Positions 6,823 to 31,460 are shown, numbered from the stretch's first letter. The stretch is 39,969 nucleotides of DNA from Candidatus Hodarchaeota archaeon (GCA_048886685.1 JBHLKM010000024.1:1202-41170), one strand, 5' to 3'. Notes: a model not told the origin generated them from the sequence alone. Made by a program: numbers and translations.

Positions 6823-8082
6823 TTAAATGTCTATTGCTTCGGTATACTCATAGCTACATGCCAAGACCTTTAATAACTCCTGCCCTTCCTTTATCAACTG
6901 AATAGTACTACTAATTTTTCCATCAAAAATGCTAAAAAGGATATGATCTTTAAACAACTCATTCTTAGTTGAATATTTCCAGCTTGGTATATATCCTTTT
7001 GCGGTTAATCCTGCATTATGAAAAATTTTTTGATGTTCCGGTTTGTACGCAGACACGAATACTTCACAGTATCTTACTCCTAATTCTTCTCTGCATCTTA
7101 TAAACTCCTCCATAAACACTTGAAGTTGCTCTAGGGTTTTCACTTTGTATTTAGTTTTTTCGAAATTCTGTACCTGAGGGGTGTAGAGAAACTGGAAATA
7201 GGAATCAGAATTTTTTATCGTAAATGTTATCGTTTCATACCCAAATTTATCTTTTACAATACATTTATGAATATTCTTCCTTAGTGCCTTAAGTTTTGAA
7301 CTGTCTAATTCAATTTCAGGGGTTTGAATGGCATAAGATCCTAAATTATAACGCTTATTGGAGTATTGAAAACATGGTTCCACATCAGAAATAATATTTG
7401 GACATTCTTTTGTTCGAAGGATGGTTAAGGATCGCTCGTCATAGAGAATTTGCATTAAATCAGACTCAATTTTTCCTAGAAACACGTCTTTATTAGGATA
7501 GAAGGCAATTGGAGCAATACCACATACCCACATTGAATACTGAGATTTTGCATGAGCCGTACGGTTTTCTACATACCAATTGTAAATTCTATCCTTAAAA
7601 TTGTGGATCATTCCCAACATAGAACCGATCATCGCTTTTGTAATATCGATATATCCCTGATATTTCTTTTTTAGCATAAAACCCCGGATATACCCGCGTT
7701 TATTTTTGAAATCTAACACAAATGTTACACATCCAGCAATATTATAAGAGGGATCTTGATAAATTATCCATTGAACATTAGGATCTTCGATAAGTTTTCT
7801 AACTTCCCTTACATCCTCCATCTCTTTATAGGGATACGTTCCATCATATAACTCTTTATAAATTTCTGTAATCTCCTTTGCATCTTCTGGTCGTGCTAAT
7901 CGCAAAATAGGGCTTATTTTATGTTGATGGTCTCTTTCAGAAATCTCGAAATCAAGATGCATCCCTTGTTTAATTTCAGCATTAATCACGTTTTTGAAGG
8001 GCTCCAAAAATTCATGAGTGAAACAGGGAAATAATTCACGTAATGAAACTATGTTTTCCACATAGATTTGTTTTGAAAACAT
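6823..8082 (-). CDS. GNAT-family acetyltransferase-like protein
   Basis: LRLARPEDAKEITEIYKELYDGTYPY start of the GNAT fold, RGFMLKKKYQG acetyl-CoA-binding-like segment, and a probable second degenerate GNAT repeat. Confidence 0.65.
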   Translation of the reverse strand: MFSKQIYVENIVSLRELFPCFTHEFLEPFKNVINAEIKQGMHLDFEISERDHQHKISPILRLARPEDAKEITEIYKELYDGTYPYKEMEDVREVRKLIEDPNVQWIIYQDPSYNIAGCVTFVLDFKNKRGYIRGFMLKKKYQGYIDITKAMIGSMLGMIHNFKDRIYNWYVENRTAHAKSQYSMWVCGIAPIAFYPNKDVFLGKIESDLMQILYDERSLTILRTKECPNIISDVEPCFQYSNKRYNLGSYAIQTPEIELDSSKLKALRKNIHKCIVKDKFGYETITFTIKNSDSYFQFLYTPQVQNFEKTKYKVKTLEQLQVFMEEFIRCREELGVRYCEVFVSAYKPEHQKIFHNAGLTAKGYIPSWKYSTKNELFKDHILFSIFDGKISSTIQLIKEGQELLKVLACSYEYTEAIDI

Positions 8083-8214: not shown

Positions 8215-8580
8215 TCAGATAGGAGAATCTTCTTCTAATTTTTTAAGAAGGTTATGAATTAATTTCCCTACTTTCTGAAGGAGTTCATTTTTTTCTTTTA
8301 GTTCGTTCTGAATTTGTGAGGGAATCTCTTTTTCAGCAAAATTGTCAATTTGCTGTTGGTATGATATTTGTTTATGATAATAGGGAAAAATTTCTATAAT
8401 TTTACTCTTGAAATTTTCCCGATTCTCAATTATTGCCGTTCTTAGTTGTTTTGGATCTACTCTTCCCATCGCCACATTACGAATTAACTCCTTTAATAAT
8501 TCGAGTTCTTTTACGTCAAAAAAGATCTTTTCAATCATGTCGGATAAATTATGCTTTTGGCCATGTAGTTTATTGTTCAT
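8215..8580 (-). CDS. Hypothetical helical/coiled-coil protein, last gene of the membrane operon
   Basis: ATG at 8580 is preceded by GAGGAG and overlaps the 3' end of the 1261-aa gene. Confidence 0.6.
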   Translation of the reverse strand: MNNKLHGQKHNLSDMIEKIFFDVKELELLKELIRNVAMGRVDPKQLRTAIIENRENFKSKIIEIFPYYHKQISYQQQIDNFAEKEIPSQIQNELKEKNELLQKVGKLIHNLLKKLEEDSPI

Positions 8581-11500
8581 TTGTCTCCTCCTCACTTTTT
8601 CTATATAAATATAGGTGCAATTTATTAAAAAACGTCTCCAAGTATTTATAGAGTTGTTTTGCCTTGATTTTAATATTATTATAGTTAAAATTAATAGTCT
8701 GAAATTGCTCTAAATACTGATTTAACTCTTCTTTGGTAAACGGCATATTACAAGTTTCGCTTAGATGCTCAATGAAATCATGTAGGTGCTTAATAGTTAC
8801 TCTCTCATCAGAGTTATAATAATGCCTATAAATCTCCGTTAGAAATCTTTGTATAAACTCATGTTCAAGCTTAAGTGCATTTTTAAATTCATTTTTTTTT
8901 AAGTATAAATGGATAGTAAACACTTCATAGTTAAAGTCACTAAACACTCGCATGAGTGCTTTCTTTACATTACCCTCCTCAATTATATACTTACGTGGTG
9001 CTTGGAGATGGTCTTCTACAAAAGGAAGAGAATTTGGAGACTCTTCCTCAATAGCTTCCATCGTATAGGCTTGGTTCGATTCATACTCATCTTCCAATGC
9101 TTTCTTATATTGAGGTCCAACAGAAAAAGAAGTTCTCAACGACTCCGAACCACTTGCCGTTTTGGGATGATTTTCCACTATATAGCCTTGTTTTATCAAG
9201 ATTGAAAAGATCTCATCTCTACATCTTTTTATATCAGATTTATCTTTATAATATCGCGAAGCTTTTGGATATAATATAGTTATCAGTTCTTTTTTCAGTT
9301 TTTTTTCATAAAGATTACCAATTTGATCTAAGGTACCAATTGATTCTAGGAATTTCTTTACTTCGGGTATGTAACCACCATAGATTCCTAAATCTTTTTC
9401 GAATATCGTTTTCTTTATTTGCTCTAATATTAATTTTTCTGTATCTCGTAAATTGTATCCTTGCCTGTCCATATATGCGATAATCTCTTCATTTTTCATA
9501 AGCGGCTGGTCTTTTACGTCTTTCCACTCAAAACACACAGGAAACGATTGATAGATATCTGATCTTTTCACAAGTGCTTCTTCACTTTTCATGTTTTCTA
9601 AGTATTGAGTTTGATATGCCTCCTTTCTACTACGTGAGTATATCCCTGTCCCGTGCATATCTCGAAGGTTCATCCTTTTCATTAACGCTCCGATATCATT
9701 CTTATCAGTGGTTCTGAAGCTGACGATATTTTCAAAATACTTTACAAAATTGGGGTGGAGATAGTACATCTGATTTGCCCCACATATTAAACCAAAGCCT
9801 TTATCGATGAGGGGATCTAAGAATTTATATACTTTCCCATAGTCGTTATACTGTTCAATCACTTTACTTTTAAAAAACACATCGATATGTGGGATAAAGA
9901 TATATTTTGCTACGTATCCTGAGTGTCGCTTGAGAAAATGGATAATTTTAGAAATAATAATAAATGTAAAAAACACAAGTTTGGGGAGATCTACGATGAT
10001 GGAAAGATCGATAATCACTGTTTTATTGGTTTTAATAAAATCTTGAAAGGTTATAACATCATGACCAGTTTTTAGTGTAGAGATATGCAAGTAGTCCAAG
10101 TCTTGAGTGGTCAAATCGCGAAATAATGCCAATAATGTGTCGCTTGCAGGATTTTCCCATTTATTTTGATTGATTAATTGGACGTTAAACGATTCCATAT
10201 CTAACTCTGGATTTTTATTAATTGCATTTCTCATAATATCTATGGCATATTTTTGTTTCTGAAATGCCAATGCATAAGCATCAAAGATATAATCCAAAAC
10301 CTCTAAATTGTCGGGATCATAAGGAATATCCGACTTTAGTGGATCTAAACTAAAGGCGGTCCCAAGTTTAAAATAAAGAAACTCATTTTCAAAGGGAGTT
10401 CCCTCAAAGTGTTTCAGTATTTTCGACCAAGATCCTCGAAAATCAAAAACCAGTGAAGGTTTGTTTTTTTCAACTAGCTGTGAGACAATCTTCATGGCAA
10501 GAAGTTCTCTGCTGGAATAGGTTCCATTCACAATAAGTAAATTGGTAAGTTGCTCTTCAGTGAAACCAAAGGGGATCTCTTTTTCGAGCACTTCAGTATT
10601 AATAGTATCCCCAATTACAATGCTATTTTTCAATTTTAAGGGGGTGTTAAATTCAGAAGCGATTCGTGTGGTAATTCCTTTTTTTAACTCATCTACTATT
10701 TCTATAAACGAGATGAGTAATTTTCCTTGAATTATAAGATAATTAAGATGAGTTCCGATAAATGTAAAATCTTTATTTTTTACAACACTAGAAATGACAC
10801 CAGAGAGTAACACTTGTCGTCTGAGTTGTACTACATCGCAATTAAAGAAGTGAGTATTAAACGCATTATACAATTTTAGGGATTTTATGTGTAACTGCTC
10901 TTCAAGATCTTCAATTATTTCCCCTGAAAGCGATTCAATATAGGTGAACTCACAAACAGAAAGCGTGAGAATCGTCTGCCATATCCCAGAACGCATCCCT
11001 AGCCAATTAATTCCATCTAATTTTGTCCGTACTCTCCAATCTGAAACCAATAGGTTCCGAAATGTCTTAAGGTTTAAATAATCAAGATATTTTTTATAAA
11101 ACACTTCAAACGATACAGGAGAATTTATGCAGGTATACCCAAAATATATTTTTTGATTCATAATTCCCCTGAGAAACTTATCAAATCGAACATAGGGGGA
11201 AGGATGTATTAGCGCAAGATTAAACATTTTGGTGCCTACCAATAATGTATTGTCAATATAGGCAAATAAAGAATCAGAAATCCCTCGATAACGGAAAAAC
11301 ACAATATCTTTAAAGGGATTTATTGCTATAAAATGACTACTCTTCATGATCGAAGTATGTAAGGTAAGGAATAATAGTTCTCGCCACCATAAGTAGATTA
11401 AAAAACCTAAGAGCGTGATGGTGATTAAGGAAGTATAGAGGAGTGAAAGTCCTAAATTCGATAAAAGAATACTCGAACTCAATAATAGAATAGAGGAAAA

Positions 11501-12355
11501 CAGTGCTTTTATCAAAACATCAGGCGTAATCCAAAGTTTTCTTTGTTCTCCTCCTTCAATTTCTTTTGGAATCTTAAAAAAATAAGTTCGTAATGCATTT
11601 ATTAAATTTCGTCCAGAGAGAGGTACAATCTGGAAGTGATGAAAGTTGCCCGCAAAATTGCTTTGAAGGACATTTCCTAAGGTAACCATTTTATCTCTCA
11701 ATAATCGAAATTTAGCACGACTTAAAGTTCCTTTTACAGAGCAATGGATACAGAAATAAATATTCGTTTGGATAGATTCTCCCACTTCGGTTTGTTCTTT
11801 TTTAAAAAGAGGCGTTTGAACTATTTGGTATGTGAAGCTTACCATGTTTTTATAACCGCTGAGTGCTTTTATGAATAAATCTATCGGAGCATGAATATTT
11901 TCAGGAATAACCTTAATTCTAAAAATAGCTAGCCCAGTATGCATTAAATCTTTTTTATTGGAAATATACAAAGCGGAAGAGGTTTCACCATCTAGAAGAA
12001 ATAACAAATCCCGAAAAGGATTTACTAGTTTTGCTTTTTTGAAGGAAAAAGACGTCAAGCTACGCAGAAGATAGAAGTGATCTCGAAAGACAAAAAGAAA
12101 GAGAGTACTAATAACAATACCTGCACCACCCATAATAGATAGATCAAATGTAATGAGATATGCAGCACTCATAAAAAATCCCACAAGTACTACAAGAAAT
12201 ATACTCCGTGCAATGATTATCAAATTATTAATATGTTTAAAGGAGGGATTAATTTTCCAGATACGCGGAACCTCTTTTTTTGAACTTTTCTCATCTATTT
12301 CAATTTGCCTTATTCTTTGCTCTCTTGGGGAAGATCCTTTTCCAAAACTTACCAT
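8570..12355 (-). CDS. Membrane-anchored HerA/VirB4-superfamily protein with degenerate Walker motifs
   Basis: The C-terminal half follows HerA/VirB4 motif order: LLIVNGTYSSRE at the Walker A position, LVFDFRGSW, VIIDLS, YIFIPHID at the Walker B position, GFGLICGANQ and IVSFR. The N-terminal half is two [2TM + soluble domain] repeats. Confidence 0.7.
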   Translation of the reverse strand: MVSFGKGSSPREQRIRQIEIDEKSSKKEVPRIWKINPSFKHINNLIIIARSIFLVVLVGFFMSAAYLITFDLSIMGGAGIVISTLFLFVFRDHFYLLRSLTSFSFKKAKLVNPFRDLLFLLDGETSSALYISNKKDLMHTGLAIFRIKVIPENIHAPIDLFIKALSGYKNMVSFTYQIVQTPLFKKEQTEVGESIQTNIYFCIHCSVKGTLSRAKFRLLRDKMVTLGNVLQSNFAGNFHHFQIVPLSGRNLINALRTYFFKIPKEIEGGEQRKLWITPDVLIKALFSSILLLSSSILLSNLGLSLLYTSLITITLLGFLIYLWWRELLFLTLHTSIMKSSHFIAINPFKDIVFFRYRGISDSLFAYIDNTLLVGTKMFNLALIHPSPYVRFDKFLRGIMNQKIYFGYTCINSPVSFEVFYKKYLDYLNLKTFRNLLVSDWRVRTKLDGINWLGMRSGIWQTILTLSVCEFTYIESLSGEIIEDLEEQLHIKSLKLYNAFNTHFFNCDVVQLRRQVLLSGVISSVVKNKDFTFIGTHLNYLIIQGKLLISFIEIVDELKKGITTRIASEFNTPLKLKNSIVIGDTINTEVLEKEIPFGFTEEQLTNLLIVNGTYSSRELLAMKIVSQLVEKNKPSLVFDFRGSWSKILKHFEGTPFENEFLYFKLGTAFSLDPLKSDIPYDPDNLEVLDYIFDAYALAFQKQKYAIDIMRNAINKNPELDMESFNVQLINQNKWENPASDTLLALFRDLTTQDLDYLHISTLKTGHDVITFQDFIKTNKTVIIDLSIIVDLPKLVFFTFIIISKIIHFLKRHSGYVAKYIFIPHIDVFFKSKVIEQYNDYGKVYKFLDPLIDKGFGLICGANQMYYLHPNFVKYFENIVSFRTTDKNDIGALMKRMNLRDMHGTGIYSRSRKEAYQTQYLENMKSEEALVKRSDIYQSFPVCFEWKDVKDQPLMKNEEIIAYMDRQGYNLRDTEKLILEQIKKTIFEKDLGIYGGYIPEVKKFLESIGTLDQIGNLYEKKLKKELITILYPKASRYYKDKSDIKRCRDEIFSILIKQGYIVENHPKTASGSESLRTSFSVGPQYKKALEDEYESNQAYTMEAIEEESPNSLPFVEDHLQAPRKYIIEEGNVKKALMRVFSDFNYEVFTIHLYLKKNEFKNALKLEHEFIQRFLTEIYRHYYNSDERVTIKHLHDFIEHLSETCNMPFTKEELNQYLEQFQTINFNYNNIKIKAKQLYKYLETFFNKLHLYLYRKSEEETNEQ

Positions 12356-12358
12356 TTC

Positions 12359-13228
12359 TTATATCATTCCCTTGTTATGCAATTTCTTATATGAAAAAAT
12401 AATAATTATGACGATCCCGAAGAATACGAGAAGTGTATTGCTCAACACCGGCATTGTATTCGGATATAAAAACATCTCAACGACGAGGAGCCCACTCAAA
12501 CAGAGAAAGAGAAAGGTCATCCCCCAGAGGAAATATTTTATAAAAAAATTTTTCACGTGACCAAAATCCATATTATCTTTTAATGTACCTTGAAAAATTA
12601 TCCTGTGTTCTTTACTTTCTTTCAGACTGTTTTTGATGTTCTTTAGGAAAATAACCCTTTCTATATTGGTTTGATCAAGGGTTCTATTTAGATTATTTTG
12701 AAGGATTCTTTCTTGTTCCCTAATTTTTTGTAAAAGTATTGGCTTGAATTTACTAGAGCTATCTTTTTTTTGTTTCATTCCCCTCGCACCTATATTAAGC
12801 ATATATAAGTTAGATGATTCAAAATATTCCTCTCCTGTCATTCCTTTATATAAATTGGGCACTTCAATTTTCCTCAGCTCATAATATACAAAGATCAATT
12901 TTTTTATATGGGTATAAGGGATTTCACCGCGATTCCGCAAGAAAAGTAATTCAACTTCTTTTATAGTTACGATATTTTCTTCTTTAAAAATCTTGATTTG
13001 AAGGTTTGTCTCAAATATTTCATTTACTACGACCATATATTCAAATAAAAGCTCTTGACTCTTTTCTCTATTGCGAGGTCTCATTCCTAATTTTAATGCA
13101 ATCTCGTCTACAAGATTACTGGTGGAGATAAATCCAACTACTGCTAGCTTTTTATAATTGCCGGTTTCCTTACACGCCTGAATTAATCTCTTTAGTTTTA
13201 GATCAAAGATTTGGTAATTCACAGTCAT
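12359..13228 (-). CDS. Hypothetical protein with two C-terminal TM helices
   Basis: Soluble helical N-terminal region and two hydrophobic helices at the C-terminus. ATGA overlap with the upstream gene. Confidence 0.7.
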   Translation of the reverse strand: MTVNYQIFDLKLKRLIQACKETGNYKKLAVVGFISTSNLVDEIALKLGMRPRNREKSQELLFEYMVVVNEIFETNLQIKIFKEENIVTIKEVELLFLRNRGEIPYTHIKKLIFVYYELRKIEVPNLYKGMTGEEYFESSNLYMLNIGARGMKQKKDSSSKFKPILLQKIREQERILQNNLNRTLDQTNIERVIFLKNIKNSLKESKEHRIIFQGTLKDNMDFGHVKNFFIKYFLWGMTFLFLCLSGLLVVEMFLYPNTMPVLSNTLLVFFGIVIIIIFSYKKLHNKGMI

Positions 13229-13899
13229 AGATAATCCTCTTTTTTAATTTTTAGTTCCTCTTCTGCAATATATTCATCTATGTCAACTGGTTCTTGAATC
13301 TCCTGGATAATTTTTTCTATTTGGATCTCAGGGAGGTGATGACTTCTTTCGAGAGCTGTGGCGGTGAGAATATAATTCAGCGAATAAGGAAAAATAAGAA
13401 CAAATCCAAAGAGTTGTAGAAAATACCCTACACCCCCAGAATAATGGATGGTAATATTCAATTCATTATCAATCTGAGTTACCACAGGATAATACAGCTT
13501 GTTAGGATATAGATAGATACTTGGGAAAAGCACAACGTAGAAAAAGGTGAATGCGAGTAAAGACACGAATATATATGTAAAATATCCTGTATTGGTAGAA
13601 TTTTCGGTTTCCATAGCACCTTGAATGACAACGACTCCTACAGACAATACAAGTGTAATGATGAATAAGACATTAATATAGAATGGCACACCAAGATTTA
13701 AAGGTCTATAATCCTCATTTATGGATACTCCTGAGGGAAAATCTGTGGTCCATTCAGAAAATAAGTTATAACTCCAAGAAGCGATGAGTTCATTATTAAT
13801 GTCCACGACTTGAAATGAATACCATTCTAAGAATAATGAGACAAACAGCACAATTAACCCTGCTAACAGCATAAGTTTAGGATATGATAATGTTCTCAT
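13225..13899 (-). CDS. Four-TM membrane protein
   Basis: Four hydrophobic segments, LEWY after TM1 with a large first loop, and an acidic tail. 4-nt gap to the upstream gene. Confidence 0.7.
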   Translation of the reverse strand: MRTLSYPKLMLLAGLIVLFVSLFLEWYSFQVVDINNELIASWSYNLFSEWTTDFPSGVSINEDYRPLNLGVPFYINVLFIITLVLSVGVVVIQGAMETENSTNTGYFTYIFVSLLAFTFFYVVLFPSIYLYPNKLYYPVVTQIDNELNITIHYSGGVGYFLQLFGFVLIFPYSLNYILTATALERSHHLPEIQIEKIIQEIQEPVDIDEYIAEEELKIKKEDYL

Positions 13900-13903
13900 C
13901 TGA

Positions 13904-15880
13904 TTACTCCTCCAAAAATGATCCGTATCTATTTACTTTATTATCCGAAATTTCCGATTCAAAAAGTCCATCATTTTTCACTTGGGTTTGTAATCTATTA
14001 TTCTCAATACTTTCTTTAATCTGATCTTCTTCAATTTGCGTTATTATTTTGGAGTGGTGTTGTTTTCCCAAACATTCATATCCAAATTGCGACATCAGTT
14101 CAGGACTAAAATGTTCATTAATTAACAGCAAACTTGTTTCGTTTAACGAGGGTTTTACTTTATAATGAAGATTTTCAAATATAGTTTGGATCTCTAGTCT
14201 CGGTTTCAGCACTTTCATATAGAAGAAAGGGATCGTGATAAAGAACACTCCAAGAAGGGCGTATCCAATATTAAGTAGCGATTTCATCGTTTCGAATGAT
14301 TGAAATACTATCAGAAAAAGGAGTATAACCCCAAAACCTATAAAAGGGATTGAGAAAAATGTAGATCGTTTTAGGAATTGATTATATAACTCATTGTAAG
14401 AGATAAGAGAATGATCTTCTTTTCGATAAGTCTCAAGTAGCGTATATTTTTGCTCAATGAAGTGGACAACTTCAGCAAGATTATTTTGGGTGACAATATG
14501 AAGGTTTATATCGCTAAGATATGCAAAGGGGATATCCTTTTCTAAAAATCCAATTTTATTTTGACATAAGAGTATTGGTTCTATAAACAATTTTACCTCC
14601 ATATTACCTTCTGTAAAGAATAAGTTCTTACGTGTAATCGTTTTTTTCGTGGAAATATTAATCCCAAAATGACGCCTGAGAAAGGAATGGAAAGAGGCTT
14701 TTTCTACCAAATCATGATGGATGGATCTATAGCTCTCTTGGAGCGTATCAAAATAGGAATCAAGGAACATTTTAAACACTGAACCATTTTCTTTAAATTG
14801 GTGATTGTTAGGAACATATTTAATCGTGTCATTTGAGACCTGTAATCCTCCTTTAAAGCTATTTACCTTTAATGGAATAATTATAACGAACTCTAGTACA
14901 TCGTTAAAATTTACCTTTTTTACCCCAATTACATCGACATGGCTAAAGATATCATTCAAAAGAGGAATATTTTTAATAATATTATAGTCATACATTTGAA
15001 AAACTTGCTCAATTTGGCTTTCAATCATTTGTTTTTCAAAACTATCTATTTTCTCTTCTTGAGTTAGAATAACTCTCGGTTTCTGTAATGATGGAGAGTC
15101 TATTTGGGCAAAACCTAATGGTTCATCTTCTATGAAACTGAGCTTGGCGGATCTTAGTGATATTTCTGGTATTTGTTCCTCAATAATATCATCCTCAACA
15201 TCAACGAATTCATCAACTATGGGATATATTTGTGACATAGTCCCAGTTTTCATAGGTATGGTTTCTGTCTTTTCGGTAGAAAGTAGGTTTGGTGATGGAT
15301 ACCACACTCCAGATTTAGGTTTATTATGCTTATCAGAAAACCAATTCTGTACTTTAACTTCTTTTATCATTTCATTATAATCATCTTCAGTATAGTCTCC
15401 ACTCTCTTCATGGGTAGGAGGTTCTTTTTGAGCACCCTCTTGCTGAGAGAAATCATTCAATTTTTTACGGGAAATGAGTGCTTTTGATCCTTCTCTTATT
15501 TTTTGGGCGGTTGCTGGTCCGATTCCTTTGATACTTGATAATTGAGGTATTGTTGATTTTGCGAGCTTCTCAATGGTATCAAATCCATGTTCTCGTAATT
15601 TTTGGGCGACAGAGGGGCCAATACCTTTTATTATAGTTATATCTTCTTTCGCAATAATAGTATTTAAAGATGGCTTACTCTTAATTGCTGAATTGAATGA
15701 ATTGAATCTTTGAACCCATTCATAATTATTTTCCAACTCAGCCTGTAAGCGTCCTTGTTCGGTTAGATCAATTGCTTGCTCGATATTATTTGATGCTATC
15801 GCTTTTTTTGCCTCTTCGTAAAATGATCCTAATGTGTTTTTCTTTCTTCCGATCTCTATCTCATTTTCGAGCACCGTCAT
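13904..15880 (-). CDS. Membrane-anchored helix-hairpin-helix DNA-binding protein
   Basis: Tandem HhH (IKGIGPSVAQKL ... IKGIGPATAQKI), an acidic linker, a possible degenerate PD-(D/E)XK fold, and two TM helices near the C-terminus. Confidence 0.7.
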   Translation of the reverse strand: MTVLENEIEIGRKKNTLGSFYEEAKKAIASNNIEQAIDLTEQGRLQAELENNYEWVQRFNSFNSAIKSKPSLNTIIAKEDITIIKGIGPSVAQKLREHGFDTIEKLAKSTIPQLSSIKGIGPATAQKIREGSKALISRKKLNDFSQQEGAQKEPPTHEESGDYTEDDYNEMIKEVKVQNWFSDKHNKPKSGVWYPSPNLLSTEKTETIPMKTGTMSQIYPIVDEFVDVEDDIIEEQIPEISLRSAKLSFIEDEPLGFAQIDSPSLQKPRVILTQEEKIDSFEKQMIESQIEQVFQMYDYNIIKNIPLLNDIFSHVDVIGVKKVNFNDVLEFVIIIPLKVNSFKGGLQVSNDTIKYVPNNHQFKENGSVFKMFLDSYFDTLQESYRSIHHDLVEKASFHSFLRRHFGINISTKKTITRKNLFFTEGNMEVKLFIEPILLCQNKIGFLEKDIPFAYLSDINLHIVTQNNLAEVVHFIEQKYTLLETYRKEDHSLISYNELYNQFLKRSTFFSIPFIGFGVILLFLIVFQSFETMKSLLNIGYALLGVFFITIPFFYMKVLKPRLEIQTIFENLHYKVKPSLNETSLLLINEHFSPELMSQFGYECLGKQHHSKIITQIEEDQIKESIENNRLQTQVKNDGLFESEISDNKVNRYGSFLEE

Positions 15881-16007: not shown

Positions 16008-16119
16008 TGCCCCATGCTTACACCCTGGATTTTTGTCTTTTGGTAGTGTAATTCATTACACTCTATAATCTTACCCTATTGATTTTTTGACGCTAAGTTG
16101 CGTCGGTTGGCACGGGGCA
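16008..16119. other. GC-enriched multi-stem structured element (candidate ncRNA or regulatory DNA)
   Basis: Closing stem TGCCCCATGC / GCACGGGGCA, internal palindrome AGTGTAAT-tc-ATTACACT, and hairpin GACGC-taagtt-GCGTC. Confidence 0.4.
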
Positions 16120-16141
16120 CCTTTTATTCAGCTGACTATAT

Positions 16142-16156
16142 TTTTTTCTTTATATG
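16142..16156 (+). promoter_or_regulatory. T6C-TATA promoter of hel308
   Basis: TTTTTTCTTTATATG, with the C 35 nt upstream of ATG 16183. Confidence 0.6.
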
Positions 16157-16182
16157 ATCCTAAATTATCGATACTTATAGCT

Positions 16183-18708
16183 ATGAGTTTAATTGATTTT
16201 ACTGAGAAAATTGCTAAAGAGGAGACTTTAGAAGAGACTGAAATTTATAAATATCTTCCTGATAGGCGTATTCTTAGGGTATTATTCGAAAACAAAATTT
16301 TTCAATTACGTGGTATTCAAAAAGAAGCTATACGGAAGGGACTATTTTTTCAAAAGTCATTTTTAATATGTGCCCCTTCTGGTAGTGGAAAGACGCTCAT
16401 TGGTGAATTATGTGCAGTACACAATGTGTTTCAAAAGTTTGGTAAATCTGTATATTTAGTGCCATTTAAAGCATTAGCAACCGAAAAATACTTTCACTTC
16501 AAAAAAGGATATGGAAAATTTGGAGTAAAAGTGGAGATTTCTATTGGAGACTATGATATAGACGATTCGAAGCTCGAAAAAGCAGATATTATCGTAACTA
16601 CCTATGAGAAGATGGACTCAATTATAAGGAATTTCTATGATAAAGAATGGATTTCGGAGTTTTCTACCATCATTATCGATGAAGTTCACATCATTGGTGA
16701 GTCAGACAGAGGACCTCGTTTAGAATCTCTCATTGTTCGACTGAATGAATTCTTTCATCACCCTCAGATCATTGGATTAAGTGCTACCATTGCGAATCCA
16801 GAGTTTTTTAATTCATGGCTCACCTCACTTGGGAATCATACCACTCTAATACAATCTGAGGAAAGACCTGTACCCCTTTATTATAAAATCCAAACTACAC
16901 AAAATAAAGATTCTACCATTAAACATATCATAAAAACTACCCTTAACGATAAAGGACAAGTCTTAATCTTTCTAAATAAACGTAAGACGGCACAGCAATC
17001 TGCCCAAAACCTTAAAGAGCTAGTAAAGAAATACTTAGAAGAATCTGAATTAAAAGTGTTAAAAGCTCTCTCTAAGCGAATCGAATCAATTAAAGGGGGC
17101 AATAGTGAATTGAGCAAAATATTTCCTTATGGAGTGGTGTTTCATCATGCTGGACTCCTTCCGCGCGAAAGAAAATTAATAGAAGATAATTTCCGTAATA
17201 AGCTTATTAGAGTCATATGCTGCACTACCACACTCTCAGCGGGAATCAATACACCTGCTCGTGTTGTTATCTTACGAGATTTTAAAAAATACACCACCTC
17301 AGGATTTAATATAAAAAACTTCTCGGGATATCATGAAAATGGTGATGGATTTTCCTATTTTAAGCCATTCTCAGCAAACGAAGTGTTTCAAATTTTAGGA
17401 AGGGCGGGTAGGCCAGGCTTGGATTCAGTTGGGCACGGAATCATATTAGTAAAAAACATAGAGGAGAAGATGTGGGTTGAGGATCACTATTTTAAAGCAC
17501 TTAAAATGAATAGTCCTCTTATGCCCAAATATAACGATCTCGGTTCTGGATTAAATAAAATCAACATCCTTAAAGAACAAGTATTACTTCGGGTATTTGA
17601 AGAGCATCAGATTACTTTAGAAAAACTCAAACATTTCTTTGAGAAGACGTATTTCTGGTATACCATTACTCATAAAATGAAAGAACAACAAATTCCAATT
17701 GAGCAGCTATTAATGATCAAAGAAATTACTCCTGTCAACATTCTTAAACTCCATGCTGATCCAAAAAAAGTACAAACTCTTAGAAATAAAAATCTTCAGA
17801 TAAAAATCACCAAGTGTAGCAATGCAACTATTTCAGGGTATATAAAAACTACGTTTGGAGTCTACTCCTGCCAGTTTGATATTGATACAGGAATTAAATG
17901 CTCATGCGGCTTTCAAAACGTTATATCCGATAATTTTGCAACTGAAAACGAGTTTGCATTTGAGTTTTGCGACCATATCACTATGCTTCTTTTGTATTTG
18001 ATCAAATTCCCTAATGTTAATATCCAGAAATATATAGAAGATATTATTCCAAAAAGCATTAAGAACCAATATATCTTAAACTATCTGTTTGAAAAAGGGC
18101 TAATCTTTAGAGATCCTAATGGCACAATATATTGTTCCCAATTCGGTAAACTTATAATTAGGCTTTATCTATATCCTACTTCAGGTGTCCTTATTCGATA
18201 CAAATTAGAGAATACCAAAATCTTTTCGTTTCGAGATCTAATTAAGGAAGCTTATGAAGTGTTAAAATCTGAATTTCGAGTTCGTGATTATAGGATGTTG
18301 GAACCTATCCTTGAGTGGACTGATGAAGAGCCGATCGAATGGATTTTAGAAAAATATAAAATAATGACTGGTGATCTTTTTTCGGTACGAGATAGTCTCG
18401 AGAGAATTATTACCTTTATTGGAATTATTGCAAATAACTTGAGTTCCAGTGGATTTGATGCCCAAAACCAGTTAGAAAGAGTTGCGGAAATGTCAGAAAC
18501 GCTTCGGATACGGATACATTATGGGATTCGTGAAGAATTATTTGACTTAGTATTGCGTCTAGATAATGTTGCACGGATACGAGCGCGGATTCTTTATAAT
18601 GCCGGATACCATACCGCCTCTCAAGTTAAGAAGGAAAATCCCTATATGCTTAACAAGAAAACAGATCTGGGAATTAATTTGTGTAAGAAAATTATTGGAA
18701 ATAAATAG
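16183..18708 (+). CDS. hel308: Hel308/Ski2-like SF2 helicase with an inserted SWIM zinc finger
   Basis: APSGSGKT, VPFKALA, TYEKMD, DEVH, LSAT, HHAGL, TLSAGINTPA and QILGRAGRPG motifs, plus a C-terminal RAR/HhH domain. Start placed at ATG 16183 rather than TTG 16087. Confidence 0.9.
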   Translation: MSLIDFTEKIAKEETLEETEIYKYLPDRRILRVLFENKIFQLRGIQKEAIRKGLFFQKSFLICAPSGSGKTLIGELCAVHNVFQKFGKSVYLVPFKALATEKYFHFKKGYGKFGVKVEISIGDYDIDDSKLEKADIIVTTYEKMDSIIRNFYDKEWISEFSTIIIDEVHIIGESDRGPRLESLIVRLNEFFHHPQIIGLSATIANPEFFNSWLTSLGNHTTLIQSEERPVPLYYKIQTTQNKDSTIKHIIKTTLNDKGQVLIFLNKRKTAQQSAQNLKELVKKYLEESELKVLKALSKRIESIKGGNSELSKIFPYGVVFHHAGLLPRERKLIEDNFRNKLIRVICCTTTLSAGINTPARVVILRDFKKYTTSGFNIKNFSGYHENGDGFSYFKPFSANEVFQILGRAGRPGLDSVGHGIILVKNIEEKMWVEDHYFKALKMNSPLMPKYNDLGSGLNKINILKEQVLLRVFEEHQITLEKLKHFFEKTYFWYTITHKMKEQQIPIEQLLMIKEITPVNILKLHADPKKVQTLRNKNLQIKITKCSNATISGYIKTTFGVYSCQFDIDTGIKCSCGFQNVISDNFATENEFAFEFCDHITMLLLYLIKFPNVNIQKYIEDIIPKSIKNQYILNYLFEKGLIFRDPNGTIYCSQFGKLIIRLYLYPTSGVLIRYKLENTKIFSFRDLIKEAYEVLKSEFRVRDYRMLEPILEWTDEEPIEWILEKYKIMTGDLFSVRDSLERIITFIGIIANNLSSSGFDAQNQLERVAEMSETLRIRIHYGIREELFDLVLRLDNVARIRARILYNAGYHTASQVKKENPYMLNKKTDLGINLCKKIIGNK

Positions 18709-23748: not shown

Positions 23749-26352
23749 TTAGATTTTAAGATCTGAGTCTCTTTTTTTTAGTTTCTTTTCTGAATAAAAA
23801 ATGACTCCTCCAGGAATCGTGATAAATAAAATAGATAGTACAATCGCATTATTGATCTCATCTTCATATACTTTTTTAGGATATACCGTGGTAAAAGAGA
23901 TACTGAGCTCTGCCAATACAGACTTACCATTGAGGGCATACAGTATACCACTGACACTTGGATAATTATTCGGATGCTGTGGAATCTGGAGATTAATTGA
24001 AAATTTATTGTTTTCTATTCGTTCAAATTCATAATATCCTAACTGATCACTCTCAAAGGCAAATGAGATATTATAATCAAAATAAGAAAGAATCAAGTTG
24101 GAAAGAGAAGCCTCAATTCTGACATGATTTCCCAACATAACTTCCTCTTGATACTGGGCAATAATATTATAGTTATGTAAGGATGCCATTTCACAGATCC
24201 ACAGGAAAATTTCTTGGTTAACTTCTTTTCTCTTAGAGGTAAGATAAAACTCATTTAATTCAGAAGAAAAAATATCTCCTACTAATTGTTGTATTGCCTT
24301 GATCTCAAAATCGATATTAACATCCAATAATTCAGCTAACTTAAAACTGTAATAGATGTTTTTGAAATTGCTGTAATTTAGGTTTTGTTCGATAAAGTTT
24401 CTAACTTTTTGGACATTCAGATCACACATATCAATCGCTTTTAGCACATATGCCATATAATAGGTATTTTGTAAAATAGTTTCATACTCCTCTGTATAGT
24501 GAGGTTTAAAGTACAGCAACTCTGAAGTTTCTACACTATGAGTGCTGATATATGATCGTAATGCAGTTATATTCAGATCTAAAAAAGTTAGGTCCCCAAT
24601 ATCCAATTGTTCAACAAGCAGTTCAAGGGCTTTAATTGCATAATATGTATATTCAAAATAAATATTTTCACTTAGAAACTCACTTCCTAACCCATCATAA
24701 GGTAGTATATATGAAAAAGCACCATACTCTTCTGGATATGAGCTATTTAGAAATTGGGTGCTAAGAATGTCATTTAACAGTTTATTTAGATTATGATGTT
24801 GCGCAAAATCGTCTAATTTGAACATGGTTTTTAAGGAATTTAATGCATAGAAGGTAGATTTATGAGAAATAAGATATTCAATTTCTTTAAAACAGATTTT
24901 TTTCCCTCCTGTATAAAACTCAATAGGATATGATCTAAAATCCTTTATCGAATTTCCATACAATACTGTATTTGAAAACGCATAGAATCCATGTCGAAAT
25001 AGCGTATGATAATATGTTTGACTTATCTTCAGATATAATCCTTGTAAATCTAATTCTGGAAGTCTTCCATACAAATCAAATGAACTAATTATTGTGTTAA
25101 GAAGATTTAGGGTGGTATAATCTATAGCTATGAGAGAAAAACCTGAATCTCTAAAAAAGTATTCGAGAATAGAAGTTGTTATTTGATTAGTATCGATAAA
25201 AGTTAATCTTGATAAAAGATTGCAATCCTTTATTACTCTTATAATTTGAAACGTATCAATTAACTCATGATATCGGAACTCAGTAGAACCATCCCAAATA
25301 CCAAGGTTATTCCGGTTATTAAAAACAAAGTTAGCAATTTTACTCTGGTTAAACAAATCAAAATTCATAATGCGACAAAGGTCTAATCCAAGGGCCGTGG
25401 TCACAATATTTGCATCTAAGGATTCCCCAAAAACCATATAATGAAAATAATTTTCATCCGTAACATATAATTGCTCTAAGAATGTGTTTAGACTTTCATT
25501 ATTAATAGTTCCAACCATTCCAAATACCTCTAGACTTTTTATACAATAATAGGTAGAAAACATATTGATATCTGTATACAGCTTCAAGGAGCTAAAGCTA
25601 ATCTCATTATCATTCATGAAACCTCCAAATTCGGGATTAACCGTTTCAGCAACTTGTAACGAATTAATATACAGAATTAACTCATTGCGTTCTTGAGAAT
25701 ATCCAGTCCAATCATCCATTAATACATCTAAAGTCTTAATTGCATAATACGTATTATCCATCGTAGAGATTTTCGCAAAATATTCTAAGGAAGGATGATA
25801 CGGTTGGCCGATAAATCCAGATGTGTGGGGATTATAACAGCTCTTTATAAAGTCAATTGAAGCATCTTTATCAATTAAATCAAGAGCATTTAATAGACCC
25901 AATGAAAGGATCGCATAACAATTTACTTCAAGCATGGAAGTGAGGGGATAATAATGAGCATCGTGGGAAAAATCGGTATCGAGATACCTGTATGCGTATT
26001 CATCTATAAATAAATGAGTGTTAGAGTTGTAGTAGCCCATGATGTAATCTATTACTTGTGTTTCATTCACCTGATCCCGCTTTCCTATAGCATCTAAAGT
26101 ATAGATTCCATGGTATGTTGCTTGCAAAGATGCCTGATATCTCTGGGGAAAAAAACCATAGGTAGCATAATCGCTAATTTTTTCATCAAACATGGAATTA
26201 ATATTGTTATAATTTGTCATTGAAGCAATTTCCACAGCACTGGAAGAATAAATAAAGGGAATATTCTTTTCATGCTGCCTTCCTGACAGGTCATACACTC
26301 CTAAAAGTATAGAAAATCCAAATATCATCATTATAGCTAATTTTTTATGCAT
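23749..26352 (-). CDS. Secreted, C-terminally anchored prenyltransferase/squalene-oxidase-repeat (alpha/alpha toroid) protein
   Basis: Repeated TYYAIxxL helices with GGF/GAF-like turns, an N-terminal signal, a C-terminal TM with basic tail, and many NxS/T sequons. ATG 26352 preferred over TTG 26394. Confidence 0.7.
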   Translation of the reverse strand: MHKKLAIMMIFGFSILLGVYDLSGRQHEKNIPFIYSSSAVEIASMTNYNNINSMFDEKISDYATYGFFPQRYQASLQATYHGIYTLDAIGKRDQVNETQVIDYIMGYYNSNTHLFIDEYAYRYLDTDFSHDAHYYPLTSMLEVNCYAILSLGLLNALDLIDKDASIDFIKSCYNPHTSGFIGQPYHPSLEYFAKISTMDNTYYAIKTLDVLMDDWTGYSQERNELILYINSLQVAETVNPEFGGFMNDNEISFSSLKLYTDINMFSTYYCIKSLEVFGMVGTINNESLNTFLEQLYVTDENYFHYMVFGESLDANIVTTALGLDLCRIMNFDLFNQSKIANFVFNNRNNLGIWDGSTEFRYHELIDTFQIIRVIKDCNLLSRLTFIDTNQITTSILEYFFRDSGFSLIAIDYTTLNLLNTIISSFDLYGRLPELDLQGLYLKISQTYYHTLFRHGFYAFSNTVLYGNSIKDFRSYPIEFYTGGKKICFKEIEYLISHKSTFYALNSLKTMFKLDDFAQHHNLNKLLNDILSTQFLNSSYPEEYGAFSYILPYDGLGSEFLSENIYFEYTYYAIKALELLVEQLDIGDLTFLDLNITALRSYISTHSVETSELLYFKPHYTEEYETILQNTYYMAYVLKAIDMCDLNVQKVRNFIEQNLNYSNFKNIYYSFKLAELLDVNIDFEIKAIQQLVGDIFSSELNEFYLTSKRKEVNQEIFLWICEMASLHNYNIIAQYQEEVMLGNHVRIEASLSNLILSYFDYNISFAFESDQLGYYEFERIENNKFSINLQIPQHPNNYPSVSGILYALNGKSVLAELSISFTTVYPKKVYEDEINNAIVLSILFITIPGGVIFYSEKKLKKRDSDLKI

Positions 26353-26470
26353 AAAACTCACGTTTAATTGTTGCCTTCTATCAAATCCTACCAAGCATAT
26401 TTAAAGAAAAAAAGAAAAAAAAAGAGAAAAAATTCACAGCCATATAATAAGGTCACACTTAAGATCATAA

Positions 26471-30227: not shown

Positions 30228-31460
30228 ATGGCAGATTTAAGTCAGATAAAAGGAATCAACGCACGACAGATTAAACTACTTCAGGATAACGATATCAGTA
30301 CTGCAGAAGCCCTAGCCATGAGTCCCTGTTCCACTGTATCAGAAATTGATGGATTAGGAGACAAAACTGCGAAAAAATTGATCTGGAACGCACGGAATGC
30401 ATTAGGAATGACAAATTTTATACAGGCAAAAGATATAGATGAGAACGTGGAGTTTATAACCACGGGATCTTCAGAGCTTAATAAAATTTTAGGCGGTGGC
30501 TTCCAAACAGGAAAATTAACAGAAATATATGGCCCTTTCAAGTCGGGAAAGACAGCATTAGCTCACACAATTTCGGTTGCAAGTCAACTTCCTATAAATA
30601 AAGGCGGACTCAATACTTCTGTGGCGTATATTGATACTGAAAACACTTTTTCAAAGGAGAAAATCAAAAGGATTGCCAAACGCTTCGGATTAAATCCCAA
30701 TGAAACCCTTTCTCGGATATATCACGCTCGGATTTACTCTTCAGATCACCAGTCTCAAATGATCCAGAAAGCAGAAATGCTTTGTAAAACCCGTGGAGTG
30801 CGGCTGATTATCATTGACAGTTTGATGGCCTTATTAAGAGCAGAATATGTAGGTATCGGTCAATTAGCACCAAGACAGGCTCTCTTGAACACTATCATTC
30901 ATACTCTATCAAGAATAGCCGAAACATATAATTGCGCCGTGTTACTTACCAATCAAGTCTCAGTTAAAATGATGGGTATGTTTTCGTCCGATGACGCAAT
31001 TGGTGGTAATATTGTAGCCCATGGATGCCACTTCCGAGTTATGTTTAAGACAAAAGGATTTTCATCGAACAACTCCCTGAAACGGAGGGCAGTCATTGTG
31101 GATGCTCCCGACCTTCCCCCAGAAGAGTGCGAGTTTTACATTACATCAGTAGGGATTGCTGACACCGATAAAGTAGAAATTCCCAAATCACTAGGATTAG
31201 ATTTTGAAATCGAGATACTCTATGAGGAAAAGGAAGAGACCCCATCTGACAATACAGAATCATCTTCAACACAGGTTCCTTTGATTTCAGTTAAAGGTAT
31301 TGGGAAGGGTACAGTAGAAGGTTTGCAAGCGTTAGGGATATCTTCGATTGATGAGTTAATCGCTGCGGATCCAGATGAGCTTTCCGCGAAATTAAGTGGG
31401 GCCTCATCTTCGAGAGTTCTTGAATGGCAAAAAAACGCGAAAGGATTATTAAAAACCTAA
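30228..31460 (+). CDS. radA: RadA/Rad51-family recombinase with an extra C-terminal HhH domain
   Basis: N-terminal HhH domain, FIQA (FxxA), ITTGS...LGGG, GPFKSGKT, YIDTENTF, LIIIDSL, TNQV and GGNIVAH. An acidic linker leads to a KGIG HhH domain at the C-terminus. Confidence 0.92.
   Translation: MADLSQIKGINARQIKLLQDNDISTAEALAMSPCSTVSEIDGLGDKTAKKLIWNARNALGMTNFIQAKDIDENVEFITTGSSELNKILGGGFQTGKLTEIYGPFKSGKTALAHTISVASQLPINKGGLNTSVAYIDTENTFSKEKIKRIAKRFGLNPNETLSRIYHARIYSSDHQSQMIQKAEMLCKTRGVRLIIIDSLMALLRAEYVGIGQLAPRQALLNTIIHTLSRIAETYNCAVLLTNQVSVKMMGMFSSDDAIGGNIVAHGCHFRVMFKTKGFSSNNSLKRRAVIVDAPDLPPEECEFYITSVGIADTDKVEIPKSLGLDFEIEILYEEKEETPSDNTESSSTQVPLISVKGIGKGTVEGLQALGISSIDELIAADPDELSAKLSGASSSRVLEWQKNAKGLLKT

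Follow-up and report, generated by a model that had tools for sequence, protein, structure and literature searches.

VirB4-type proteins are the one universal component of conjugation machines, and in archaea they had been known on plasmids and in the Ced/Ted DNA importers of Crenarchaeota. The HerA (DUF87) proteins are hexameric translocases, among them HerA-NurA and the scaffolds of the Sir2-HerA and DUF4297-HerA defense systems, and HerA doubles as an assembly platform for partner enzymes. In bacterial systems, VirB3 sits or is fused ahead of the VirB4 N-domain (PMC12857230). CedB and TedB are described as the ATPases powering DNA import, and the Ced/Ted systems represent VirB4-type proteins in chromosomal DNA import which are genomically tied to recombination genes (PMC9905601). 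Here, we describe a VirB4-like pseudo-ATPase (P0001) encoded on the reverse strand at positions 8570-12355 of a 39,969-nucleotide (nt) stretch of DNA from Candidatus Hodarchaeota archaeon (GCA_048886685.1, JBHLKM010000024.1:1202-41170). This whole stretch is referred to as the window, and positions are counted from its start; the host is called a Lokiarchaeon-type Asgard archaeon. The gene is a single open reading frame (ORF) of 1261 amino acids (aa), as a preliminary description based on the sequence had proposed.

Sequence comparisons and predicted structures make it probable that the protein is a VirB4-derived, membrane-anchored hub with a dead ATP site, working together with the helicase Hel308. 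The preliminary description had called it a HerA/VirB4-like protein in which the surrounding motif pattern is kept and the Walker motifs are lost, and two findings had been set beforehand as counting against this, namely a fold that is not RecA-like and intact Walker motifs in orthologues. Both were examined, and the reading withstood each of them: by Foldseek and VIA-align, the model has a RecA-like fold of the FtsK/HerA/VirB4 kind, and no intact Walker A motif occurs even in relatives at 21-27% identity.

The N-terminal half was modeled with AlphaFold2 as residues 1-540, with a predicted local distance difference test (pLDDT) score of 84.7 and a predicted template modeling (pTM) score of 0.84. 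A cytoplasmic tail (residues 1-43; 12227-12355, reverse strand as for all parts of the protein) carries a conserved I-W-x-x-N-P-S motif in which W33 and P37 are invariant among 25 aligned sequences, and its residues 1-28 have low pLDDT. The tail is followed by a first transmembrane (TM) hairpin (residues 44-89; 12089-12226), with model helices at 44-69 and 72-89 and matching Kyte-Doolittle peaks, and by an alpha/beta subdomain a (residues 108-255; 11591-12034). A second TM hairpin (residues 278-322; 11390-11524), with model helices at 278-300 and 305-322 and support from hydropathy, precedes an alpha/beta subdomain b (residues 342-525; 10781-11332). The hairpin flanks are rich in Lys and Arg, pointing to the cytoplasm, and because each hairpin brings the chain back to the same side, the soluble domains would all lie on one side of the membrane.

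Searched with Foldseek, the 1-540 model gave significant matches only to the R388 type IV secretion protein TrwK/VirB4 (E 2e-9). VIA-align superposed residues 110-540 on TrwK residues 13-384, which form the VirB4 N-domain, with Z 23-24 and a root-mean-square deviation (rmsd) of 3.0-3.7 Å over 296-303 residues; the runner-up was EccE of type VII secretion (Z 12.6). Since the pair of soluble domains superposes on the two-part TrwK/VirB4 N-domain, the protein is VirB4-type rather than HerA-type, which makes the HerA/VirB4-like identity first proposed more exact. On the strength of these models, we have high confidence that the protein is VirB4-type by structure and membrane-anchored. The first hairpin precedes the N-domain at the position of VirB3 in the bacterial systems, whereas the second one, placed between the two N-domain halves, distinguishes the protein from VirB4.

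This second hairpin aligns with the first in hhalign, and the preliminary description had in fact read the N-terminal half as a tandem repeat of two TM segments and a soluble domain. The two halves match only marginally by pairwise BLAST (E 0.039), whereas comparison of their profiles by hhalign gives 98% probability and an E value of 9e-14 over 216 columns including the hairpins, which together with the architecture of the model bears out the duplication. According to the model, the duplicated module is the two-part VirB4 N-domain with a TM hairpin preceding each half. In distant two-module relatives (P0197, P0199, P0217, P0229, and others), the first unit matches module 1 and the second matches module 2 by hhalign. 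The duplication is therefore old, as the two modules have been kept separately in these relatives, and a recent Loki-specific duplication was rejected for the same reason.

Some Asgard families have one-module forms of about 780 aa or split genes, consisting of an N-module of about 280 aa and a core of about 530 aa (L026:7716-10132, L027:7926-10375, L038:3905-6318, L029:7644-9967). The one-module form of about 780 aa is a single protein in families f7 and f26. The split form was seen in several families, where the smaller gene encodes two TM helices and a domain and the larger one the core and a winged helix. The single N-module in all these relatives is the counterpart of module 2, as a tblastn search with the f19 N-module matches nt 10796-11335 and hhalign concurs. 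Searched on its own, subdomain a (model residues 113-240, about 11636-12019) has a small alpha/beta fold that weakly resembles YbjN-like proteins and the chaperones of type III secretion (Z 3.5-3.9).

The C-terminal half (residues 521-1261) was modeled with AlphaFold2 from a 48-sequence alignment (pLDDT 77) and compared with the PDB by Foldseek and VIA-align. Foldseek retrieved HerA, DndH-C, VirB4, and TrwB with E values between 1e-9 and 1e-7, and VIA-align scored DndH-C at Z 24.4, VirB4 (4ag5) at Z 24.1, HerA (4d2i) at Z 24.0, and TrwB at Z 21, so that the four fall within Z 20-24 over some 320-345 residues each. The superposition on 4ag5_A has an rmsd of 4.2 Å over 331 residues and a Foldseek TM-score of 0.65 on the target. 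Both the N-domain (Z 24) and the C-domain of VirB4/TrwK are thus superposable on the protein, which also shares their inner-membrane location. The matched region is a P-loop-like core of the FtsK/HerA/VirB4 fold (about residues 565-950; 9506-10663), and at its front lies E-F-N-T-P (residues 568-572), the most conserved motif of the family.

Beyond the core, the protein has about 300 additional C-terminal residues which VirB4 lacks. A helical stretch in the model leads to a winged-helix domain (about residues 1017-1095; 9071-9307), modeled as helix-helix-hairpin, whose wing is near-invariant in the alignment (Y1058, E1061, H1063, A1067, G1069, S1076, and G1080). Among relatives, one distant member has a weak Pfam match to a winged helix, and one carries the NCBI label "winged helix-turn-helix". 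A disordered acidic linker at about residues 1095-1123 of the model then separates the winged helix from a C-terminal helical bundle (about residues 1130-1251; 8603-8968), delimited by model secondary structure and pLDDT.

HerA (DUF87) shares the core fold and a colinear pattern of D-x-h-G-E-Y-like and I-I-D-L-S motifs. It differs from the VirB4-like protein in having a HAS barrel where the latter has a VirB4-type N-domain and TM hairpins, and in having the ATP motifs that the latter has lost; moreover, the VirB4-like protein has no DUF87 match, though the same profile finds at least five other ORFs of the genome. These canonical DUF87/HerA ORFs lie on five other contigs. The preliminary description had envisaged an active ATPase partner encoded elsewhere, and active HerA-type paralogues do exist elsewhere in the genome; none of them is linked to the locus, as all DUF87 ORFs are on other contigs, and no AAA_10 match was found in the genome.

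The protein has 146 homologues, mostly full-length (about 1240-1300 aa), all labeled "hypothetical" and ranging from 77% to 34% identity. A HMMER search over 1.8 billion cluster representatives yielded only 170 matches, including the relatives at 21-27% identity, and every relative with an organism name is from an Asgard archaeon (Promethearchaeota, Lokiarchaeota, Baldrarchaeia, and others). Pfam gave no match for the 1261-aa protein, nor for 25 family members even at E <= 1, with CagE_TrbE_VirB, AAA_10, DUF87, and FtsK_SpoIIIE among the families covered. Neither NCBIfam nor PADLOC matched it, so that PADLOC leaves a known defense system as its home unsupported. Searches of the PDB by sequence returned nothing with either a single-sequence phmmer or a profile query, and residues 955-1261 had no match in the ESM Atlas. 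In the literature on VirB4, HerA, Hel308, or conjugation in Asgard archaea or Lokiarchaeota, no account of the family was found. We conclude with high confidence that the family is restricted to Asgard archaea and goes unrecognized by sequence profiles.

In its ATP site, the protein departs from VirB4 and has neither the Walker A Lys (GxxGxGK[ST]) nor the Walker B Asp-Glu. At the Walker A position, N610 to E617 read NGTYSSRE (10505-10528), and at the Walker B position, Y818 to D825 read YIFIPHID (9881-9904); both degenerate motifs lie where the preliminary description had located them. A sensor-1-like A-N-Q (residues 860-862; 9770-9778) is retained at the end of the core strand 855-860 in the model. 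A usual phosphate loop has six or seven residues. In the model, strand 605-609 is followed by three loop residues (N-G-T) and then by helix 613-629, and since the helix starts three residues past the strand, no normal phosphate loop would be formed. In the Walker B region, strand 818-821 is followed by P822, and the two stretches correspond to the strand-loop-helix and the Walker B strand of P-loop folds. Alignment of the core with canonical HerA-like ORFs of the same genome by hhalign is colinear and pairs R616 with the Walker A Lys, E617 with the Ser, and P822-H823 with the two acidic residues, a register which is weak alone (56% probability).

None of the 225 aligned family sequences has GxxxxGK[ST] anywhere. 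Instead, G611 is found in 217 of the 225, R616 in 198 (with Lys in 4), and E or D at position 617 in 156, and distant relatives read G-G-T-x-E-x-R at Walker A. At Walker B, P822 is present in 176/201 sequences (Asp in 19) and D or E at 825 in 199/201; K817 is present in 178 family sequences and Q862 in 152/200. The loss proposed in the preliminary description is accordingly a family trait, and strain-specific decay was rejected, as the variant motifs are kept in 225 sequences down to 21% identity. Because these variant motifs are conserved family-wide, the site was remodeled early in the family and has been under selection since, rather than belonging to a decaying gene. The sequences and the model make loss of ATP hydrolysis the likely outcome of this remodeling, and we have fairly high confidence that the protein cannot use ATP as VirB4 does.

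The same conservation could be read differently, with the protein still an NTPase whose non-canonical site uses R616 and E/D617 in place of Lys and Ser/Thr and D825 as the catalytic or Mg-binding acid, pumping DNA or protein in the manner of VirB4 or FtsK. Strong conservation of R616, E/D617, D/E825, K817, and Q862 is what a functional site would lead one to expect, the length of the site equals that of a Walker A motif, and some relatives retain D-E at Walker B. However, the phosphate-loop glycines are gone except G611, the model helix extends into the loop, and Pro occupies the Walker B acidic position in those 176 of 201 sequences. To our knowledge, no P-loop ATPase family works with Arg instead of the Walker Lys. 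We therefore regard an active NTPase as very unlikely.

With the Loki protein as query, 39 genomes sampled from the same family were searched; 30 have a full-length copy, and some carry two or three. A core profile (A5, threshold E <= 1e-5) matched 277/398 Asgard genomes, 67/89 high-quality genomes, and 68/85 sampled genera, and in these counts matches near 1e-6 to 1e-9 may be cross-matches to true HerA. Genomic context was compared in 28 non-paralogue loci from ten GTDB families (f1, f7, f9, f12, f15, f19, f26, f30, f31, and f32). In 25 of them, a Hel308-like helicase is encoded no more than 10 kb from the VirB4-like gene; the other three loci are on contigs of only 6.5-8 kb. The helicase of f1 and the operon containing the VirB4-like gene are divergent. 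The clusters of f7 and f26 run RadA, XPD, small TM proteins, VirB4-like protein, and Hel308, with 4-nt overlaps including one between the VirB4-like gene and Hel308, and RadA and XPD fall within the same co-directional cluster. RadA is the first gene of the same co-directional cluster in f19.

The preliminary description had raised a coupling of the protein to the neighboring helicases, and this gains support from the conserved Hel308 linkage in ten Asgard families. We have moderate confidence that the VirB4-like protein works with Hel308. The conserved adjacency together with the VirB4 shape suggests an undescribed membrane-bound DNA-handling machine. In contrast to VirB4, the gene is chromosomal, Asgard-wide, and Hel308-linked. 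A mobile element was rejected as the setting of the window copy, since its synteny is chromosomal and conserved.

By description, CedB and TedB resemble the family in several respects: they are VirB4/HerA-type proteins of archaeal chromosomes, their partners are membrane proteins both small and polytopic, and they are genomically tied to homologous-recombination genes, which in the window family are Hel308, RadA, and XPD. They differ in that the VirB4-like protein lacks ATP motifs, and a pilin-like (VirB2) or VirB6-like channel partner as in Ced/Ted was not recognized among the neighbors by Pfam, NCBIfam, or hhalign. No VirB6-, VirB2-, or VirB8-type partners are recognizable nearby, and the polytopic and two-TM proteins of the operon have no family or profile match.

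In the mechanism we favor, each chain would cross the membrane with four TM helices arranged as two hairpins, every soluble domain facing the cytoplasm: the two-part VirB4-type N-domain, the FtsK/HerA/VirB4-fold core, the winged helix, and the helical bundle. The chains would probably assemble into a ring at the inner membrane face, as in VirB4 and HerA, without ATP hydrolysis, in keeping with the ring scaffold or conduit of the preliminary description. This ring may serve as a docking platform or gate for the operon partners, namely a membrane protein with DNA-binding helix-hairpin-helix (HhH) motifs, a polytopic protein, and a two-TM protein, and for Hel308, which would supply the motor activity on DNA, while RadA would handle the product. 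Its likeliest job would be to handle DNA at the cell membrane, whether in uptake, in exchange, or in tethering DNA for recombination repair; the analogy here is to Ced/Ted and to ComFA/ComEA of bacterial competence. We have low to moderate confidence that DNA is moved or held at the membrane by this complex, on the grounds of the HhH membrane protein, the winged helix, the linkage to RadA and XPD, and the precedent of Ced/Ted. Taking part in the uptake or exchange of DNA is purely an inference. In its broadest form, a dead VirB4-type ring, the HhH membrane protein, Hel308, and a spare RadA would constitute an Asgard-wide machine for intercellular DNA uptake or exchange in which a superfamily 2 (SF2) helicase replaces the conjugation ATPase as motor, a possibility that we offer tentatively and hold to be rather doubtful.

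Several observations weigh against a Hel308-coupled, ATP-site-dead hub. The structures are predictions, and both the lack of ATP binding and the oligomeric state are presumed. A few distant relatives retain hhhhD-E (or D-Q) at the Walker B position, and an unusual site for a nucleotide or phosphate could still be accommodated, given the Arg that stands in for the Lys and the sensor-like Gln that is retained. The paralogues in f1 (L018:6232-12524, L022:7113-11861, L024:4484-13861, and L025:6283-11804) are without Hel308 and adjoin a CDC48-N-only protein, a TPR protein anchored by a TM segment at its C-terminus, and a protein with five to six TM helices, a setting which hints at a scaffold that is not tied to DNA; the Hel308 linkage could be partly inherited synteny. 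Finally, for the accessory membrane proteins no homology was detected between lineages or to VirB6/VirB2. This comparison covered the 658-aa HhH, 224-aa, and 289-aa proteins of the operon and the proteins encoded at the corresponding positions in f7, f19, f26, and the paralogue loci; all hhalign pairs stayed at or below 18% probability, and as the profiles are shallow (3-8 sequences), this is not evidence of absence. The paralogues suggest that the scaffold may serve more than one partner set. Between genomes, the copies in L018, L024, and L025 share 92-94% identity, and a stop interrupts the one in L025, so that, judged by sequence, the f1 paralogue module could be mobile or recently spread.

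The paralogue setting is also what would be expected of a platform for proteins or surface structures, that is, an assembly or secretion scaffold similar to type IV or type VII secretion systems (serving, for example, the large surface proteins nearby), with the Hel308/RadA neighborhood as inherited synteny. The resemblance of the N-module to EccE points in this direction, as do the large alpha/alpha-toroid surface-type proteins that recur in the clusters (23749-26394, L028, and L029) and the CDC48-N and TPR proteins with which the paralogues sit. On the other hand, Hel308 is linked in all ten families, with a 4-nt overlap between the two genes in f7 and f26, the first gene of the operon is predicted to encode a DNA-binding HhH membrane protein, and the winged-helix domain of the VirB4-like protein is conserved. 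A protein platform thus seems unlikely to us.

FtsK/SpoIIIE and Streptomyces TraB have the same order of parts as the VirB4-like protein (N-terminal TM segments, FtsK/HerA-fold core, C-terminal winged helix), and differ from it in their weaker structural match (Z 13.4 by VIA-align for FtsK 6t8o), in its VirB4-like N-domain, and in its lack of ATP motifs. As these parts mirror FtsK and its gamma domain, the protein might statically tether chromosomal DNA or repair intermediates to the membrane, anchoring breaks or replication/recombination complexes in an FtsK-like position, with no translocation and no DNA crossing the membrane. All soluble parts are cytoplasmic in the model, and the window is a repair gene cluster comprising Hel308, a Hef-like helicase, RadA, and FEN1, both of which suit a tether. 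Yet nothing separates a tether from import or exchange, and the polytopic membrane partners and conserved surface proteins exceed what a tether needs. We consider a purely static tether quite unlikely and keep to the hub that works with Hel308.

What emerges is a large sequence-orphan branch of VirB4 across Asgard archaea, with a complete VirB4 shape and an ATP site lost long ago, tied to Hel308, RadA, and XPD. Should DNA be handled at the membrane, the family would be a concrete, testable candidate for DNA exchange and recombination in the closest relatives of eukaryotes, and the hub, if real, would be a case of a secretion motor that has become passive and is driven by a helicase. Regardless of function, a 1260-aa "hypothetical protein" of most Asgard genomes gains a structural name.

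In the window (GC content about 32%), the VirB4-like gene is the fourth of a tightly coupled five-gene membrane operon, all co-directional on the reverse strand, whose genes run in the order 13904-15880, 13225-13899, 12359-13228, 8570-12355, and 8215-8595, in which 4 nt separate the first and second genes, the second and third overlap by 4 nt, 3 nt lie between the third and fourth, and the fourth and fifth overlap by 26 nt. The first gene (13904-15880) encodes the 658-aa protein with two HhH motifs (residues 81-131; Pfam HHH_5, E 1e-13) and two C-terminal TM helices, and is kept upstream of the VirB4-like gene in seven orthologous loci. The second (13225-13899) encodes the 224-aa polytopic membrane protein, which is syntenic in six loci and has no family match in Pfam, NCBIfam, or PADLOC. 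The third (12359-13228) encodes the 289-aa protein, which has a TM hairpin at its C-terminus. This hairpin and that of the 658-aa protein align by hhalign at 18% probability (E 0.0013, 50 columns), the only such signal among the accessory proteins, which may be mere TM composition. The fifth gene (8215-8595), whose start overlaps the VirB4-like stop, encodes a small, soluble, helical protein of about 120-126 aa. No nuclease families turned up in Pfam/NCBIfam scans of the five-gene operon, in which NurA itself was not searched for.

The f1 operon is syntenic in seven loci, with the HhH, 224-aa, 289-aa, VirB4-like, and 126-aa genes followed by a gene for a 419-aa protein with a weak GNAT match. 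In the window, this last gene comes after the operon (6823-8082, reverse strand), and its product has 41-65% identity across six syntenic loci, above the adjoining membrane genes.

The Hel308-like SF2 helicase of the window (16087-18708, forward strand, divergent from the operon) matches Hel308 in both Pfam and NCBIfam. It is the top Hel308 match of the whole genome and scores under the NCBIfam Hel308 cut-off. Its counterpart in another Asgard family (L028:5662-7857) has a weak match to a SWIM zinc finger (E 0.0097). The window RadA (30228-31460, forward strand) is the most divergent of the three full RadA/Rad51 genes of the genome (240 bits vs 319 and 297) and, by sequence, looks like a spare paralogue; it also has an additional C-terminal region with a weak DUF4332 match. 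The prenyltransferase-like alpha/alpha-toroid domain is known in thioester/macroglobulin-type surface proteins. A large protein with such a domain is encoded at 23749-26394 on the reverse strand of the window and recurs in the same gene clusters of distant Asgard families (L028:1-3570 and L029:14241-17201).

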